Shown piece after piece: positions 45,190-57,706 of a DNA stretch of 64,000 nt (positions within the stretch are counted from its first letter, which is position 1; each line of letters begins with the position of its first letter). Both the position numbers and the translations under genes were made by a program. Origin of the DNA: Escherichia coli (GTDB lineage: Bacteria > Pseudomonadota > Gammaproteobacteria > Enterobacterales > Enterobacteriaceae); the NCBI RefSeq assembly GCF_013122565.1, contig NZ_CP053258.1. One strand, written 5' to 3'. The notes below the pieces were generated by a model. That model was given only the letters and a program-made list of their open reading frames with translations, did not search any database and was not told the DNA's origin.

Positions 45190-45481
45190 TATAAATTTCT
45201 CATTAAATCTGGATAAATAAATTGACGGCGGCATCGGTAATTTGAGATTCGTTATCATTAAAAAAGAATACAGAAAAATAAATATAAATTTGGTGAATGT
45301 TTTTGACATGATTAAATCCATTTTCTTTATTTTCTTCTGACATAATACGTTACTCCCTTTAATTCTTAACGATATGTTTCGCATTTTTCTTGAAACCTGC
45401 CTGTAACAGAATGTTAATAAGACATGATTGTTGTGGCAGGATCTGCAATAATTAACAATTATCCACTTCACAGAGAATGCT

Positions 45482-46153
45482 ATGCAGTACCCGATTAACG
45501 AGATGTTCCAGACCCTGCAAGGTGAGGGTTACTTTACCGGCGTCCCCGCCATTTTTATTCGTTTACAGGGATGCCCGGTTGGCTGTGCCTGGTGCGACAC
45601 CAAACACACCTGGGAAAAGCTTGAGGATCGGGAAGTCTCCCTTTTCAGCATTCTGGCGAAGACCAAAGAGAGTGATAAGTGGGGGGCGGCGAGCAGTGAA
45701 GACTTGCTGGCTGTCATTGGTCGCCAGGGATATACCGCGCGGCATGTGGTGATTACGGGGGGTGAGCCTTGCATTCATGATTTGCTGCCACTGACTGACC
45801 TGCTCGAAAAGAACGGTTTTAGCTGCCAGATCGAAACCAGTGGTACTCATGAAGTACGCTGTACACCGAATACCTGGGTTACCGTATCGCCAAAGCTGAA
45901 CATGCGCGGCGGCTATGAAGTGTTGTCACAGGCACTGGAGCGAGCCAACGAAATCAAGCATCCAGTGGGACGCGTACGTGATATTGAAGCACTGGATGAA
46001 CTTTTGGCGACGCTGACCGATGATAAACCGCGAGTCATTGCACTGCAGCCGATTAGCCAAAAGGATGATGCCACACGTTTGTGCATTGAAACCTGCATTG
46101 CGCGTAATTGGCGTTTGTCGATGCAAACCCATAAATATTTAAATATTGCCTGA
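45482..46153 (+). CDS. queE: 7-carboxy-7-deazaguanine synthase QueE (radical SAM)
   Basis: 223 aa, radical-SAM Cys motif [10 protein letters not shown]. Confidence 0.95.
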
Positions 46154-46490
46154 TTAAACATTTATAAGTGTTATAAATGGGTGGAACCTGTAAAGAATTC
46201 CACTCATTTATATTGTTTGTCGCCTCTGAAAACCCCTCTTTTTTGCCCATCCTTGACTAATCATTATCATTCTCTACAAATTCTGTGGCGTTAATTTTTC
46301 GCTGGAGTGAAAATTATTGCGGTAAAGTTTGGTAGATTTTAGTTTGAATAGAGTTATTTTAAATATTTATCTTTTTAATCAATGGATTAAGTGCTCTTTA
46401 ACATAATGGATGTGTTGTTTGTGTGATCCTGTAAAGTTGTTAGATTGTGACTGGCTTAAAAAATCATTAATTAATAATAGGTTATGTTTA
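46154..46490 (+). promoter_or_regulatory. AT-rich CRISPR leader for the mini-array
   Basis: About 340 bp of AT-rich sequence immediately 5' of the first repeat. The distal repeat is degenerate, so this is the leader side. Confidence 0.55.
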
Positions 46491-46702
46491 GAGTTCCCCG
46501 CGCCAGCGGGGATAAACCGGCGATTATAGCGGACTTTCAAGAGAACAGTCTGAGTTCCCCGCGCCAGCGGGGATAAACCGTGGAAAATCACCGACAATAT
46601 TCGACATGGAGAGAGTTCCCCGCGCCAGCGAGGATAAACCGTTATCGGTCATCAACTATAGCGCGTATTTACTAAGTTCCCCGTTCCAACACGAATAATC
46701 CG
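46491..46702 (+). CRISPR. Type I-E CRISPR mini-array (CRISPR2-like): 3 intact repeats, 1 degenerate terminal repeat, 3 spacers of 32 bp
   Basis: Repeats gagttccccgcgccagcggggataaaccg at 46491, 46552 and 46613 (third has one mismatch). Degenerate repeat 46674..46702. Phase confirmed by the antisense artefact ORF 46379..46597. Confidence 0.95.
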
Positions 46703-46767
46703 ATAATATCGACGATACCAACCTAATATTATCAAATGTTAAAGGTTCTAATTTAAGAGGAAATTTA

Positions 46768-47031
46768 ATGTCTACGTTAATGGAAAAAGAATCTCTCCTG
46801 AATGGCGTGAGTCAAAATATTGCATTTTTATCAAATGTATCTGAAATGGTTTACAACTCTCAGAATGAAGAGTTGCAGTATGAAATATATGAGCTGGTGA
46901 GTTATAAAGATTATCTATACTCAACAGACCATGAACTTGTTGATTTTCAAGAGGGAGTATTACGATTTCAACAAATTAGAACAAAATACAGGCAAGAGCT
47001 AAAAGAACTCGGTTATCCTGTAGGTAATTAA
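46768..47031 (+). CDS. Hypothetical protein (87 aa, acidic, AT-rich codon usage)
   Basis: Intact ORF with SD aagagg 9 nt upstream. No homolog I recognise. Occupies the position where K-12 has ygcE..ygcN. Confidence 0.5.
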   Translation: MSTLMEKESLLNGVSQNIAFLSNVSEMVYNSQNEELQYEIYELVSYKDYLYSTDHELVDFQEGVLRFQQIRTKYRQELKELGYPVGN

Positions 47032-47393
47032 GAAATATTGTCTTGATGGTGGGGAAACGTAATTTTTTATATTTTAAATATTAGATTAAAACAATAAATT
47101 AATATCATACTTTTATTTTATTCTCGAAAATGCCTAATTTCATTAAATACGTTGTCCTGTAAATGTAAACCGGGCATTTTTCCGCCCGGTCTCCCTCGAT
47201 TACGCTTCTGAGCAGGTCTCGAGCGAATTCACACTCTCCCGTTCAACTTGCATCACCAGTTGGTTAAATTCAGTCAAACTCTCGCTCATAATAATAATGT
47301 CGCAGTCGTCTTCCATGTCATGCCCCAGATATCCAGAACACAACACCCTAACATAGCGTTACTTAAGGGAAATTGACCGCCGACACACTCTTA

Positions 47394-47759
47394 TCATTCG
47401 CCGCGATAGATACAACCTGCGGTGCAGGTTTCTTTCACCATCACTGCACTTAATAGCGGCACAACGGGTTTAACCTGATCCCAAATCCATTTTGCTAAAA
47501 CTTCGCTGGTTGGGTTTTCCAGACCTGGAATATCATTGAGATAATGGTGATCGAGGCGCTCATAAGTTGGCTTAAACGCCGCTTTCAGTTCAGCGAAATC
47601 GATAATCCAGCCCGTATGCGGATCGACTTCCCCGGTAATTTCCAGTCGCACCATAAAGGAATGCCCGTGCAGGCGACCACATTTATGTCCTTCCGGGACG
47701 TGTGGTAAGCGGTGAGCGGCTTCGAAGGTGAAATCTTTAAATAACGTGGTGGACATCAT
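47394..47759 (-). CDS. queD: 6-carboxy-5,6,7,8-tetrahydropterin synthase QueD
   Basis: 121 aa from [20 protein letters not shown]. The track ORF starts 28 codons upstream at a TTG. Confidence 0.93.
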
Positions 47760-48074
47760 AATTTCTCTACATGACGATAAAACCGCCGTAGAGTACCGGA
47801 AAGGCTGTTTTTTCGCATTATCTAAAACGACTTTGTTGCGCAAAATCGCTGATTTATCTTAATGATTGGCTAAATTCATTTGTTTTTCATTAGGTTGGTT
47901 AATCTATTTTGTTGTTAAAGACTATTGCTAAAACAGGTTAGTCGATTTGGTTATTAGTTATCGCTATCCCGTCTTTAATCCACACCGTTCACCCCGTTAA
48001 CCTTACCTTCTCTTCTGTTTTATGGGCGCTGACAGGGCGCAGAAACAGCTTTGCTTACTGGAACATAACGACGC

Positions 48075-49874
48075 ATGACGACACAGGTCCCACCTTCCGC
48101 GTTGCTTCCGTTGAACCCGGAGCAACTGGCACGCCTTCAGGCGGCCACGACCGATTTAACTCCCACCCAGCTTGCCTGGGTTTCTGGCTATTTCTGGGGC
48201 GTGCTCAATCAGCAGCCTGCTGCGCTTGCAGCGACGCCAGCGCCAGCCGCAGAAATGCCGGGTATAACTATTATCTCCGCCTCGCAAACTGGCAATGCGC
48301 GCCGGGTTGCTGAAGCATTACGCGATGATTTATTGACGGCAAAACTGAACGTTAAGCTGGTGAACGCGGGCGACTATAAATTCAAACAAATCGCCAGCGA
48401 AAAACTGCTCATCGTAGTGACGTCAACGCAAGGGGAAGGGGAACCGCCGGAAGAAGCCGTCGCGCTGCATAAGTTCCTGTTCTCCAAAAAAGCGCCAAAG
48501 CTGGAAAACACCGCGTTTGCCGTGTTTAGCCTCGGCGATAGCTCTTATGAATTTTTCTGCCAGTCCGGGAAAGATTTCGACAGCAAGCTGGCGGAACTGG
48601 GCGGTGAACGCCTGCTCGACCGTGTCGACGCCGACGTTGAATACCAGGCTGCTGCCAGCGAGTGGCGCGCCCGCGTGGTTGATGCGCTTAAATCGCGTGC
48701 GCCTGTCGCGGCACCTTCGCAATCCGTCTCTACTGGCGCGGTAAATGAAATCCACGCCAGCCCGTACAGCAAAGACGCGCCGCTGGTGGCGAGCCTCTCT
48801 GTTAACCAGAAAATTACCGGGCGTAACTCTGAAAAAGACGTTCGCCATATCGAAATTGACTTAGGTGACTCGGGCCTGCGTTACCAGCCGGGTGACGCGC
48901 TGGGCGTCTGGTATCAGAACGATCCGGCACTGGTGAAAGAACTTGTCGAACTGCTGTGGCTGAAAGGCGATGAACCTGTCACCGTCGAGGGCAAAACGTT
49001 GCCTCTGAACGAAGCGCTACAGTGGCACTTCGAACTGACCGTCAACACCGCCAACATTGTTGAGAATTACGCCACGCTTACCCGCAGTGAAACACTGCTG
49101 CCGCTGGTGGGCGATAAAGCGAAGTTACAGCATTACGCCGCGACCACGCCGATTGTCGACATGGTGCGTTTCTCTCCGGCGCAACTGGATGCCGAAGCGC
49201 TGATTAATCTGCTGCGTCCGCTGACCCCGCGCCTGTATTCCATCGCCTCCTCGCAGGCGGAAGTCGAGAACGAAGTACACGTCACCGTTGGTGTGGTGCG
49301 TTACGACGTGGAAGGCCGCGCCCGTGCCGGTGGTGCCTCCAGCTTCCTCGCGGATCGTGTGGAAGAAGAGGGCGAAGTCCGCGTATTTATCGAACATAAC
49401 GATAACTTCCGTTTGCCTGCTAACCCGGAAACCCCGGTGATTATGATTGGCCCCGGTACCGGCATCGCGCCGTTCCGTGCCTTTATGCAGCAACGCGCCG
49501 CCGACGAAGCGCCGGGTAAAAACTGGCTGTTCTTTGGCAACCCGCACTTTACGGAAGATTTCCTCTACCAGGTGGAGTGGCAGCGCTACGTCAAAGAGGG
49601 CGTGCTGACGCGTATCGATCTTGCCTGGTCGCGCGACCAAAAAGAAAAAGTTTATGTACAAGACAAACTGCGCGAACAGGGCGCGGAGCTGTGGCGCTGG
49701 ATCAATGACGGTGCCCACATTTATGTCTGCGGCGACGCTAATCGCATGGCGAAAGACGTTGAGCAGGCACTTCTGGAAGTGATTGCCGAATTTGGTGGCA
49801 TGGACACCGAAGCGGCGGATGAATTTTTAAGTGAGCTGCGCGTAGAGCGCCGTTATCAGCGAGATGTCTACTAA
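48075..49874 (+). CDS. cysJ: Sulfite reductase [NADPH] flavoprotein alpha subunit
   Basis: 599 aa. Confidence 0.97.
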
Positions 49875-52658: not shown

Positions 52659-52811
52659 ATGCTGACAAAATATGCCCTTGTGGCAATCATCGTACTGTGT
52701 TGTACAGTACTGGGATTCACGCTGATGGTAGGCGACTCGTTGTGTGAGTTGAGTATCAGAGAACGTGGTATGGAGTTTAAGGCAGTTCTCGCTTACGAAT
52801 CGAAGAAGTAG
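52659..52811 (+). CDS. Hok/Gef-family type I toxin (50 aa; below ORF-track cutoff)
   Basis: Translates to [50 protein letters not shown]. One TM helix and a conserved C-terminal SLCE...AYES.K block as in plasmid R1 Hok (from memory). SD agggagg 7 nt upstream. An overlapping upstream 34-codon ORF (52561..52665) ends 7 nt into hok, like a mok reading frame. Confidence 0.8.
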
Positions 52812-53048: not shown

Positions 53049-54392
53049 GTGACTTTCTTTGATTTCTGGGGAAAAACCCGACGTGGCGAGAAAGAAGGGG
53101 GCGACGGCTATCACCTTCTTTGCTGGCATTCGCTGGATGTGGCCGCGATGGGCTATTTAATGGTTAAAAGAAATTGCTTCGGGCTGGCTGACTATTTTCG
53201 TCAATTAGGGATTTCTGACAAGGAACAGGCAGCTCAATTTTTCGCCTGGTTGCTGTGCTGGCACGATATTGGAAAATTTGCCCGCTCTTTTCAACAACTT
53301 TACCTGCCCCCTGAATTCAAGATTCAGGAAGGTGCCAGAAAAAATTACGAAAAAATCTCTCATTCAACGCTGGGCTACTGGTTGTGGAATCATTATTTAA
53401 GTGAATGTCAGGAGTTACTTCCTTCATCTTCGCTCTCTCCGCGCAAACTTAGGCGAGTGATAGAAATGTGGATGCCCGTGACGACAGGGCATCATGGTCG
53501 GCCCCCTGATCGTATGGATGAATTGGATAATTTTCTGCCTGAAGACAAAGCTGCAGCACGAGATTTTCTCCTTGAAATCAAACCACTGTTTCCGCTCATA
53601 GAGATCCCCGCATTCTGGGATGATGATGAGGGCATTGAACTTATAAAACACCTTTCCTGGTATATCTCTGCAACCGTCGTGCTCGCAGACTGGACGGGTT
53701 CGTCAACGCGATTTTTTCCACGCGTCGCACACCCAATGGATATTAAAGGTTACTGGCAGAAAACTTTAGTTCAGGCTCAAAATGCCTTAACCGTCTTTCC
53801 TCTAAAAGCAAAAGTCGCGCCTTTCACCGGAATTAATACGCTGTTTCCTTTTATTGAGAATCCGACACCGTTACAGCAAAAGGTGCTGGATCTGGATATC
53901 AGCCAGCCAGGGCCACAGTTATTTATTCTGGAAGATGTGACTGGCGCAGGTAAAACGGAAGCGGCGCTTATCCTGGCGCACAGGTTGATGGCTGCGGGTA
54001 AAGCGCAGGGTTTGTTTTTTGGCCTGCCAACAATGGCAACGGCCAATGCCATGTATGATCGGCTCGTCAAAACCTGGCTTTCTTTCTATTCGCCAGAATC
54101 TCGCCCCAGCCTGGTGCTGGCACACAGTGCCCGCACATTAATGGACCGCTTTAATGAATCACTCTGGTCCGGTGATTTAATCGGGTCAGAAGAACCGGAT
54201 GAACAAGCTTTCAGCCAGGGTTGTGCGGCCTGGTTTGCCGACAGTAACAAGAAGGCGTTGCTGGCTGAAATTGGCGTCGGCACCCTGGATCAGGCGATGA
54301 TGGCAGTGATGCCGTTTAAACATAATAATCTGCGGCTTCTGGGGCTGAGTAACAAAATCGTGTTCCCCGCGCCAGCGGGGATAAACCGATGA
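53049..54392 (+). pseudogene. cas3: Truncated cas3 (type I-E; HD nuclease domain and start of helicase domain only), fused to the CRISPR array
   Basis: 447-aa ORF with a GTG start. HD motif WHDIGKF and Walker A TGAGKTEAA. Collinear with the N-terminal half of K-12 Cas3 (888 aa, from memory). The frame runs through CRISPR repeat 1 (...NKIV|FPAPAGINR) and stops in spacer 1. Confidence 0.88.
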
Positions 54393-56647
54393 ATATTTGC
54401 GAATATTCGGCAGAAAGCGGGTGTTCCCCGCGCCAGCGGGGATAAACCGAGGTTGCGGCACAAATTGAGGTTGTCGCAAATGTGTTCCCCGCGCCAGCGG
54501 GGATAAACCGCCGACGCAGCAGCGGCAGCAGCGGCAGCAGCGGTGTTCCCCGCGCCAGCGGGGATAAACCGTGGATCAGTGCCGCGTTCTCTCTCCGTGT
54601 AATGTGTTCCCCGCGCCAGCGGGGATAAACCGATCGAGACGGGTACGCGTAAAGCCGAGCTGGCGTGTTCCCCGCGCCAGCGGGGATAAACCGCGATCGG
54701 TTAATTCTTCTACCTGCCTTTGCAGGTGTTCCCCGCGCCAGCGGGGATAAACCGCCCGCAATGCATTCGGGCAGTTCCTTGCCGGGGTGTTCCCCGCGCC
54801 AGCGGGGATAAACCGGAGATTGAGCCAGACGCCCGCCAGGTGTTACTGTGTTCCCCGCGCCAGCGGGGATAAACCGGAAGTAACACACCCAACCCAGGTT
54901 GCGCCAGAGTGTTCCCCGCGCCAGCGGGGATAAACCGCCTGTTTGAGCAGGCGCGAATGAACCGGACCAGTGTTCCCCGCGCCAGCGGGGATAAACCGTC
55001 AGGTAAGCCAGTGTTAGGGGCAATATAGCAGTGTTCCCCGCGCCAGCGGGGATAAACCGTCATCGGCTCGTTATTTGTAGCCAGCACTACGGTGTTCCCC
55101 GCGCCAGCGGGGATAAACCGCTTTATCAGATGGTAAAGGTGAATCAATATGAGTGTTCCCCGCGCCAGCGGGGATAAACCGATACCCCAGCGTTTCGTTA
55201 TATGACGGAAGATGTGTTCCCCGCGCCAGCGGGGATAAACCGTGCAACCAGGACGGCAGGACGCATCGCCAGATGTGTTCCCCGCGCCAGCGGGGATAAA
55301 CCGCACGTTATTATCCGATATTCACCGATAAGCGTGTGTTCCCCGCGCCAGCGGGGATAAACCGTCTGGGCGTAAACAGTCGGATAAATCGCGGGTGTGT
55401 TCCCCGCGCCAGCGGGGATAAACCGGCGGCGTGTGGGGTAACAATCAGGGAGAGAAAGTGTTCCCCGCGCCAGCGGGGATAAACCGGATAAATACAGTAT
55501 ATTCCCGCGCTCTGCTGGCGTGTTCCCCGCGCCAGCGGGGATAAACCGTAGATTTTGTCCGGCTCAGGTGCGCCGATGGTGTGTTCCCCGCGCCAGCGGG
55601 GATAAACCGATCGAGTACAACAAAAAATATACTGAGTGAGTGTGTTCCCCGCGCCAGCGGGGATAAACCGCTGTTTGCTCCTGCTGCTCATTTAGTGATT
55701 TAGTGTTCCCCGCGCCAGCGGGGATAAACCGCCTGTTCTTTTTTAGTCAACTTAACCATGCTCGTGTTCCCCGCGCCAGCGGGGATAAACCGTCTTTTTC
55801 GAGACTTGCAGCAACGCTCTGAAAGTGTTCCCCGCGCCAGCGGGGATAAACCGATCGAGTAGTTTTGAGGGTTGGTGAATTCAGGGTGTTCCCCGCGCCA
55901 GCGGGGATAAACCGCTTAATAAATGGACTTAAGCGCCCAGTATTGGGTGTTCCCCGCGCCAGCGGGGATAAACCGGGGAGGGCGAGCCGCCGTAGGTGCG
56001 GTGAGGGGTGTTCCCCGCGCCAGCGGGGATAAACCGACGCAGAAACTGGTTGAAATAGTTTACGGTGAGTGTTCCCCGCGCCAGCGGGGATAAACCGGCA
56101 GTAAATTATTTGACCTCGTTGATAATCCCGTGTTCCCCGCGCCAGCGGGGATAAACCGGTGGCGGTGTGATTGTGGGACTTATTGCCATCGTGTTCCCCG
56201 CGCCAGCGGGGATAAACCGGGCCTTTTCAGCAGATTAACCGCCGCGATTGCGTGTTCCCCGCGCCAGCGGGGATAAACCGAGAGATTTATATTCTTTCAA
56301 ACCGGATTATATCGTGTTCCCCGCGCCAGCGGGGATAAACCGCTTCAAGAATTTTTAAACGCTGGCTTCAAAATGTGTTCCCCGCGCCAGCGGGGATAAA
56401 CCGTCCCACGCGTGCCAGATGGCGCGTTTGATGGCGTGTTCCCCGCGCCAGCGGGGATAAACCGATGATAACGGCAAAGGGTACGCTACGTACAACGTGT
56501 TCCCCGCGCCAGCGGGGTTAAACTGTGATCCAGTGAGTACCGATCCGGGAACAACCGGTGTTCCTCGCATCAGCGGGGATAAACCGGGTGCACTGGATGC
56601 GATGATGGATATCACTTGGCGTTCCCCCGCCCCTGCGGTAGAACTCC
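54360..56647 (+). CRISPR. Type I-E CRISPR array: 37 repeat-spacer units plus a highly degenerate terminal repeat; no leader, no adjacent cas operon
   Basis: 29-bp repeat gtgttccccgcgccagcggggataaaccg with period 61. Spacers are 32 bp except one of 33 bp (55487..55519). Repeat phase verified against the antisense artefact ORFs ([10 protein letters not shown] / VYPRWRGEH / GLSPLARGT). Degenerate repeats at 56497, 56558 and 56619 mark the leader-distal end, next to iap. Confidence 0.97.
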
Positions 56648-56668
56648 CAGCTCCCATTTTCAAACCCA

Positions 56669-57706
56669 TCAAGACGCCTTCGCCAACTCCTTCACCAGAG
56701 GTAGCATTATCCGCATAACGTCACGGCAGCGACGTTCTATTCTTCCAGGAAGTGCCTTATCAATATGCTGTTGATTATCCAGTCTTACGTCATGCCAGCT
56801 ATTTCCCGCAGGGAATGCGGCTGTTTTTGCGCGTTGCTGATAACCATCCTTATTCCCAAGATTCCAGTTAGTCGCTTCCACCGAAAGTACAGCAATGCCC
56901 GCTTTGTCGAATATTTCGGCGTCATTACAACATCCAGTGCCTTTCGGATAATTTTTATTCAAACCCGGATTGGTCGTTGCGGCAATTCCATGACTACGCG
57001 CAATTGCCAGCGCCCTGTCGCGCGTTAATTTCCTTACTGCTTCAGGGGTTTTTACACCGCTGTTGAAATACAATTTATCGCCAACAATTAAGTTATCGAG
57101 ATTAATCACCAGCAGCGTATTTTTCTTTTCGGTGTCACTCATCCGCTTGAGTAAATTCTCAGCGCCTAATTTTCCTTCCTCTTCGCCGCTGGTCGCCACA
57201 AATCGAATACCATACTCGGTAGGCGTATTTTTCAGGCGTTCTGCCAGTTCCAGCATGACACCTAAACCTGCGGCGTTATCATCTATTCCTTGTAACGTCA
57301 GTCCGCCGAGATTGGCATCGGCGTCAGCATCGCTCAGCGGGGCGTAAGTATCCAGATGCGCCATAATGATGATCTGCTGCGGCGCTTTGCCTTCATGAGC
57401 GGCAATCACCGTACTTCCCGTCACGTTATGCCAGCTCTTACGATTATCGCGGGCGGTATAAATATATCGACTATTAAATGTCCGAATATCACTGCGATAA
57501 CCCATTTGCTGAAACTGTTGGCGAATATAATCGGCAGATAACATTTCTGCAGGAGTTCCGGTCATGCGTCCCGGAAAGAAAGTAGCAATATGTCGTGCCT
57601 GGGTATTAGCAAAATCGCCAGGTTTAGGTGACGAGGCGTGTACGGGGAGAATAAAGCATACGCCGAGCGCCAGGGCAGCGGTACGGTGGCGCAATGCGGA
57701 AAACAT
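56669..57706 (-). CDS. iap: Alkaline phosphatase isozyme conversion aminopeptidase Iap
   Basis: 345 aa, signal peptide, M28-type peptidase. Confidence 0.93.
   Translation of the reverse strand: MFSALRHRTAALALGVCFILPVHASSPKPGDFANTQARHIATFFPGRMTGTPAEMLSADYIRQQFQQMGYRSDIRTFNSRYIYTARDNRKSWHNVTGSTVIAAHEGKAPQQIIIMAHLDTYAPLSDADADANLGGLTLQGIDDNAAGLGVMLELAERLKNTPTEYGIRFVATSGEEEGKLGAENLLKRMSDTEKKNTLLVINLDNLIVGDKLYFNSGVKTPEAVRKLTRDRALAIARSHGIAATTNPGLNKNYPKGTGCCNDAEIFDKAGIAVLSVEATNWNLGNKDGYQQRAKTAAFPAGNSWHDVRLDNQQHIDKALPGRIERRCRDVMRIMLPLVKELAKAS

Follow-up and report, generated by a model that had tools for sequence, protein, structure and literature searches.

In the 64,000-nt stretch of Escherichia coli DNA that we analyzed (GCF_013122565.1, NZ_CP053258.1; hereafter the window, to which all coordinates refer), the sequence that follows queD on the minus strand is very probably a non-functional deletion scar, an ordinary relic in which remnants of ygcN and ygcE form a ygcN′–′ygcE chimera. 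Objects of this kind are well understood: it is a fused pseudogene remnant built from two known genes, and it belongs to no leader-peptide, small-protein, or sRNA family. The original prediction had seen in the same letters a possible micro-operon of two tiny coupled ORFs with its own terminator, resembling a leader peptide or small-protein gene, or else the 5′ remnant of a gene lost in a deletion.

We propose that one deletion of ~10.6 kb would have begun at ygcN codon 10 and ended near codon 465 of the 492 in ygcE, joining the intact spacer and ygcN start to the last 28–29 ygcE codons, the stop, and the downstream hairpin. The two ends would happen to meet in frame, leaving a 38-codon chimeric ORF; the 29-codon ORF of the original prediction would be the second part of this chimera, read from an ATG made at the junction, and the 11-codon ORF would result from reading across the ygcN start in another frame, up to a TGA that the junction likewise made. 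We observed directly the two homologies, the common junction, the relaxed constraint, and the non-conserved starts of the two ORFs; the passage of transcripts and ribosomes over the scar, to which we return with the hairpin, is put forward as a suggestion.

Sequence layout and the two parent genes

The gene order in the window is eno, ygcG, queE (+), CRISPR, an 87-aa ORF (+; hereafter orf87), the scar, queD (−), and cysJI (+), with queE at 45482–46153; the two ORFs and the hairpin lie on the minus strand. The CRISPR-II array has been placed between ygcE and ygcF (queE) (PMC3903273), and Touchon and Rocha described the CRISPR-II locus as bounded by the core genes cysJ and ygcF (PMC2886076). Reading down the minus strand, the queD stop (TGA, 47396–47394) is followed by a 77-nt spacer, then by ATGACATGGAAGACGACTGCGACATTATTATTATGAGCGAG…, by a TAA at 47202–47200, and by accgggcggaaaaatgcccggtttacattt. 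The letters bear out what the original prediction had read in them: an 11-codon ORF, MTWKTTATLLL, runs from ATG 47321 to a TGA at 47288–47286 (47321→47286); a 29-codon ORF, MSESLTEFNQLVMQVERESVNSLETCSEA, runs from ATG 47289 to the TAA at 47202–47200 (47289→47200); the two overlap as ATGA; and a hairpin follows on the same strand, with the core ccgggc-N8-gcccgg at 47189–47170 and an extended stem at 47191–47168, after which comes TTTACATTT.

What was overlooked is that the 29-codon ORF continues in frame from the true ygcN start at 47316. In the ORF list it forms the tail of a longer open frame (47346–47200, minus strand) in which MEDDCDIII sits just before its Met, and its ATG is an internal codon of a 38-codon chimeric, in-frame ygcN′–′ygcE relic ORF (MEDDCDIIIMSESLTEFNQLVMQVERESVNSLETCSEA; 47200..47316). 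Three minus-strand segments make up the stretch: the queD–ygcN spacer (47317..47393), which is the intact ygcN 5′ leader and does not differ from K-12; the ygcN 5′ remnant (47288..47316), consisting of the ATG at 47316–47314, codons 2–9 (MEDDCDIII), and two extra bases; and a diverged ygcE 3′ end that includes the stop TAA at 47202–47200 (47200..47287), within which 47256–47203 corresponds codon-for-codon to the last 18 ygcE codons.

On the left side, a megablast search of 5426 complete E. coli genomes with 47400→47100 as query found the 113 nt from 47400 to 47288 in 5425 of them, with identities that mostly lie at 98–100%; these matches fall under the annotations queD and ygcN and cover the annotated ygcN start. 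Past 47288 only seven of the 5426 genomes continue the match. Compared directly with K-12, the window from 47900 to 47288 aligns without gaps at 98.4% identity, and the alignment stops at 47288, 29 nt into ygcN; in a K-12-like genome the distance from the end of queD to the ygcN start is 78 nt. The K-12 ygcN translation begins MEDDCDIIIIGAG / MEDDCDIIIIGAGIAG…, and from this translation and the end of the alignment it follows that the window ATG at 47316 is the ygcN start, with codons 1–9 kept. The likeness to K-12 ygcN (b2766, an FAD-dependent oxidoreductase, FixC-like) thus takes in the 77-nt spacer downstream of queD and the ygcN coding sequence from its start through base 29; unlike the K-12 gene, the window keeps just 9 of 423 codons, and the FAD-binding GxGxxG motif that comes immediately after them (IIGAGIAG in K-12) is gone. 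An alignment to the K-12 queD–ygcN region, the comparison suggested with the original prediction, accordingly identifies 47400→47288 as the shared queD 3′ end, spacer, and ygcN start, and reaches no further than 47288.

The right side belongs to ygcE (b2776, an FGGY-family sugar kinase). In a sensitive blastn comparison, 47256→47170 matched the last 54 coding bases of K-12 ygcE together with its stop and downstream hairpin (75.9% identity, E = 5e-12), and in a multiple alignment the stop codons and hairpins of the scar and of ygcE are in register. The correspondence extends to the protein level: by tblastn VMQVERESVNSLETYSNA pairs with VMHGELGNVDSIQSWSNA, with the same stop at the end, and the scar tail VMQVERESVNSLET(C/Y)S(E/N)A pairs with the YgcE C-terminus VMHGELGNVDSIQSWSNA. 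Shared with ygcE, then, are the last 18 codons, the stop, and the GC-rich hairpin in register, at ~72–76% nucleotide identity, and also the downstream neighbors orf87 (in RMDEC465), CRISPR-II, and queE; compared with an intact ygcE, the window keeps ~28 of 492 codons, and these are 33–44% identical to YgcE in amino acids. The low amino acid identity, together with a pN/pS of ~1.1–1.3 against intact YgcE, indicates drift like that of a pseudogene.

Gene order supports the same assignment. The sequence beyond the breakpoint matches eight genomes. In seven of them the arrangement is that of the window, with an identity of ~95%. In RMDEC465, the remaining one, the identity is 78% and the matching segment overlaps the 3′ end of an intact ygcE, after which come an orf87 homolog and queE. 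In the window the scar tail is followed by orf87, CRISPR, and queE. The outer neighbors therefore match on both sides, with queD and cysJ on one side and orf87, CRISPR-II, and queE on the other, while the intervening genes are absent: between the two ends K-12 has 10 genes (ygcN, ygcO, ygcP, ygcQ, ygcR, ygcS, ygcU, ygcW, yqcE, and ygcE), and the ~10.6 kb from ygcN to ygcE is missing from the window relative to K-12. The 31 nt directly after the junction (47287–47257) have no convincing alignment to K-12 ygcE, so the right-hand breakpoint is located only to within ~10 codons, and a short filler at this point is possible. The second suggestion of the original prediction, that the stretch is the 5′ remnant of a gene lost in a deletion of ygcE..ygcN, was correct for the ygcN start and its nine codons; what remains, with the hairpin, comes from the 3′ end of ygcE.

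Carrier loci, selection, and chance

The comparison covered 18 carrier loci, namely the window; four loci with an identical 87-aa protein (L017–L020), which together with the window form the window clade; seven RefSeq E. coli genomes (L001, L005–L010); and six loci with an 87-aa variant that the sources name E. fergusonii (L011–L016). One junction is common to all 18, so it arose once, in an ancestor. Across it the window clade reads ATTATTATTATGAGCGAG and all other carriers read ATTATTATC---AGCGAG, a difference of a 3-nt indel (ATTATC---AGC). Outside the window clade, the carriers lack the ATG of the 29-codon ORF and, with it, both the ATGA overlap and the TGA stop of the 11-codon ORF; by our own reading of the alignment, the frame of the 11-codon ORF runs on past the junction site in K-12, and in the other carriers it stops at a different TGA further on. 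Neither ORF, as the original prediction defined it, has a reading frame that is conserved in relatives.

The E. fergusonii-type loci, arranged queD–scar–orf87–CRISPR-II–queE, have the same junction, neighbors, and hairpin as the window; they differ in that the window clade has the extra 3 nt (ATG) at the junction, in an 8–9% nucleotide divergence of the scar, and in the flanking core genes, which in the window are E. coli-like. These loci and the seven E. coli genomes have a 37-codon version of the relic ORF, and an exact look-up among 15 billion proteins found this 37-aa version, without the extra Met, on record; between this 37-aa fusion peptide (P0001) and the 38-aa version of the window the identity is 92%. 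The 38-aa, 48-aa, and 29-aa ORFs of the window were absent from the same collection by exact look-up. In L010 the ygcN start has changed from ATG to ACG, and in P0002, an E. fergusonii protein record, the stop codon has been lost and the frame reads through to 56 aa. PGAP annotates no CDS at the scar in any of the seven RefSeq genomes, and no gene was called between orf87 and queD in 10 other carrier loci; a gene caller did predict the 37-aa and 56-aa versions in a few assemblies.

To gauge selection on the frames we used Nei–Gojobori counts of pN/pS, over the 28-codon tail among carriers and over the 18 alignable codons against intact ygcE, in both cases with few substitutions. In the tail, pN equals or exceeds pS in most carrier pairs (28 codons, few substitutions), and the window and 13E0767 differ by five nonsynonymous and no synonymous changes. 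Across the 18 codons, the scar compared with intact ygcE gives a pN/pS of 1.06–1.33 and an amino acid identity of 33–44%; the same codons compared between the intact ygcE genes of K-12 and RMDEC465 give 0.06 and 94%. As controls, orf87 has a pN/pS of 0.18–0.38 and queD of ~0. The scar is also the most diverged segment among the carriers: its identity is 88–92%, whereas orf87 with its flank reaches 93–96% and queD, in most carriers, 98–99%. Small as the counts are, all lines of evidence agree, and they point to coding frames that drift without purifying selection. Every carrier examined has the fusion in frame, and the 3-nt indel keeps that frame, which is weakly suggestive of an ORF; the in-frame state is nevertheless unremarkable, since two ends join in frame with a prior of 1 in 3 and a single 3-nt slip in an ATT run is nothing unusual.

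The two-ORF layout is no more than chance would give. ATGA-coupled pairs of ATG-initiated ORFs (at least 8 and at least 25 codons) number 57 in the 64-kb window, compared with 27 ± 5 in block-shuffled sequence, and such pairs arise roughly once per 2–3 kb. The original prediction had conceded that there is no strong Shine-Dalgarno sequence, and here it was right: the anti-Shine-Dalgarno duplex ΔG is +0.4 kcal/mol for the 29-codon ATG and −3.1 kcal/mol for the 11-codon ATG. The best of the three starts is the ygcN ATG at 47316, with −4.7 kcal/mol (GGGG, weak). A consensus scan for promoter-like sites found 6 sites compared with 6.0 expected from shuffled sequence; one of them (47321→47294) lies inside the scar and was discounted, the scan being at chance level. 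We likewise rejected as a regulatory element a 14-bp stem-loop at 47346–47315 (minus strand; many G-U pairs, ΔG −14.8). It takes in both the ygcN Shine-Dalgarno region and ATG 47321, and its sequence is shared with K-12; its z-score of −2.07 is not significant, and in the divergent allele of L010 it is destroyed with no compensating changes.

Database searches agreed in finding nothing beyond the scar lineage. A search of 45400–48200 against Rfam 15 at a permissive E-value gave no match in 47100–47400 and two sub-threshold chance hits elsewhere, and Pfam gave no match for the 38-aa peptide. Among 1.84 billion representative proteins, phmmer returned the scar peptide P0001 as the sole match and no homolog outside the scar lineage; this library holds one representative per 50%-identity cluster, in which a full-length kinase with a closer tail could hide behind a K-12-like representative. 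We found no literature on ygcN together with queD, and the CRISPR papers that cover the locus (PMC3903273, PMC2886076) do not cover this junction.

The hairpin and competing readings

The hairpin downstream of the ygcE tail appears, from its folding and its conservation, to be the only part of the scar with signs of maintenance. It begins 8 nt after the TAA and has a 9-bp stem with a ΔG of −18.8 kcal/mol in context (z = −3.5; none of 200 shuffles folds as well). Homologous hairpins follow ygcE in K-12 (−28.1) and RMDEC465 (−24.7), another is found in 13E0767 (−21.1), and the hairpin is kept in all carriers and in the genomes with intact ygcE. One stem position is G-C in K-12, G-U in 13E0767, and A-U in the window, which by our own reading of the folds and the alignment traces a compensatory path. 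The claim that the ORFs have their own terminator fared unevenly: the stable GC-rich stem-loop is there, but its T run (UUUACAUUU as the U tract) is interrupted, two of the U residues pair in the best stem, and a consensus scan calls no terminators in 46100–48100. The scan misses the hairpin because some of the T run is taken up in the best stem; the K-12 version of the hairpin has no U tract. We consider it at best a putative weak intrinsic terminator or 3′-end stabilizer.

Neither scanning nor folding found a terminator-like structure from the queD stop to the hairpin, and queD transcripts therefore probably read through to it. Under the deletion-scar explanation, such transcripts, plus any from an unmapped ygcN promoter, would cross the scar; ribosomes may start at the retained ygcN ATG and make a short chimeric peptide that has no selected function; and the hairpin inherited from ygcE would serve these transcripts as a weak stop or 3′-end stabilizer. 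Translation from the ygcN ATG is possible on the evidence of the sequence, and nothing indicates a selected product.

The coupled micro-operon of the original prediction, or a leader peptide or attenuator in which translation of the 11-codon ORF controls the 29-codon ORF or a downstream gene by way of the hairpin, takes its appeal from two features that do exist in the window, the ATGA overlap of the ORFs and a hairpin beyond the second of them. Leader-peptide attenuators such as trpL, pheL, and hisL are the obvious models, and the likeness to them (a short ORF, an ATGA overlap, and a hairpin in the window) is superficial: unlike these attenuators the scar lacks a downstream gene to regulate, alternative structures, start and stop codons that are conserved, and a run of regulatory codons. 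The overlap and the second ATG are limited to the window clade, the other carriers end the first ORF elsewhere and have no start for the second, and the frames lack purifying selection. The 29-codon ATG has no Shine-Dalgarno sequence, folding gives a single hairpin with no alternative antiterminator pairing that involves the ORF, and pairs of this kind arise ~27 times per 64 kb of shuffled sequence. No same-strand gene lies downstream; the next gene, orf87, is convergent, and anatomy thereby excludes a leader-peptide role. Judged on these comparisons among carriers, the micro-operon or leader reading is already refuted, and we give it practically no credence.

A different possibility is that the deletion fusion gave birth to a gene, and that a functional chimeric microprotein of 37–38 aa, composed of MEDDCDIII and the ygcE-derived tail, has a function of its own. 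Such a gene would have to be reconciled with a pN/pS of ~1 or higher, with the loss of the start in L010 and of the stop in P0002, with a scar that diverges faster than its flanks, and with the lack of homologs beyond the scar lineage, of a domain, and of a PGAP annotation; these weigh more with us than an ORF that is in frame and open in most carriers, a frame-preserving indel, a native ygcN start kept with its weak Shine-Dalgarno sequence (GGGG, −4.7 kcal/mol), and an occasional gene-caller prediction. We hold a functional product to be very improbable, and there is similarly little chance that the carriers translate the 37–38-residue chimera as this reading would have it, with the internal ATG and ATGA of the window clade perhaps adding a second initiation site. 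If true, it would be a natural and datable deletion-fusion microprotein in E. fergusonii and a few E. coli lineages, perhaps gaining or losing function. The hairpin, finally, may set the 3′ ends of queD transcripts as a co-opted terminator, with scar RNA perhaps processed into a 3′-UTR-derived small RNA. This would fit the lack of any terminator-like structure between the queD stop and the hairpin, the presence of the hairpin in all carriers, its compensatory stem path, and its z-score of −3.5; it fits poorly with a U tract (UUUACAUUU) that is interrupted, partly taken up in the stem, and uncalled by the consensus scan, with a K-12 version that has no U tract, with the lack of an Rfam match, and with the sequence upstream of the hairpin, which evolves fastest in the locus. 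We regard such a role as doubtful but worth keeping in mind; it is compatible with the deletion-scar explanation and not an alternative to it.

Neighborhood and origin of the allele

The gene that faces the scar, orf87 (46768–47031, +), encodes an 87-aa conserved protein that PGAP annotates as hypothetical and is convergent to the scar. It is intact in RMDEC465, at 83% protein identity, directly after the intact ygcE. We take orf87 to be a real, constrained gene, the natural downstream neighbor of ygcE in this haplotype. Its named records come from Escherichia only and are mostly E. fergusonii (B7LWQ4_ESCF3 and many WP_ records), and the variant of the E. fergusonii-named records is indexed in 472 blocks of the protein collection. 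It has no significant Pfam match (DUF5800, E = 0.15, is below the cut-off), and tblastn found no remnant of it in K-12. Its place is the one expected for the leader side of the CRISPR-II array. The array itself is a mini-array of four type I-E repeats with a 61-nt spacing (46489–46702, −), of which the copy nearest orf87 is degenerate, with 74% identity to the reference copy; array length varies, with annotated features of 273 to 395 nt in related genomes.

E. fergusonii appears to have the scar allele as a rule; in E. coli it is rare, with seven carriers among 5426 complete genomes. From eno to queE the window is 98.8% identical to ordinary E. coli, which identifies its host as that species, and the E. 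fergusonii-type loci (L011–L016) are 98.6% identical to the window in queD, 97.5% in queE, and 95.9% in cysJ. This pattern of identities hints at interspecies exchange centered on the CRISPR-II region; CRISPR-Cas modules and the CRISPR-II region are known to exchange between lineages (PMC3903273). Recombination across the CRISPR-II region or an old polymorphism probably explains why the allele is shared. L010 (NZ_OZ197100.1, E. coli 23S01245-7) stands apart, its queD being 94.6% and its scar 88.4% identical to the window, with the whole queD–scar segment divergent; to judge from these identities, its allele suggests a different donor lineage for the same junction.

Several observations concern the wider locus. 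In L011–L016 genes for LemA, a 302-aa protein, and a 382-aa protein lie between queE and a TPM-domain gene at the ygcG position, and these three are absent from the window. Also between queE and ygcG, a 46-aa ORF in the window (45203–45343, −) matches K-12 YqcG, a cell envelope stress response protein, in position, strand, and length. Just downstream of cysH lies a 50-aa ORF (52659–52811, +) whose equivalent in related loci has the Pfam domain PF01848 (HOK_GEF); it looks like a putative chromosomal hok-type toxin. The equivalent position in K-12 is presumably occupied by iap. A 447-aa ORF (53049–54392, +), which we take to be a putative N-terminal fragment of cas3, runs directly into CRISPR repeat sequence and is followed by a long type I-E array (about 54300–56700). 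With a truncated putative cas3 set against a CRISPR array and the rest of the cas operon missing, this part of the window has the look of another deletion relic.

In itself the result matters little; it strikes a false entry from the candidate small-protein and leader-peptide genes. It documents the junction at which a ~10.6-kb ygcN–ygcE block of sugar and redox genes was lost beside CRISPR-II. Since this junction is apparently usual in E. fergusonii and is present in seven of 5426 complete E. coli genomes, it may serve to mark lineages or recombination in the CRISPR-II region. More generally, it illustrates why a short ORF found at a rearrangement junction calls for comparison with the undeleted allele before it is accepted as a gene.
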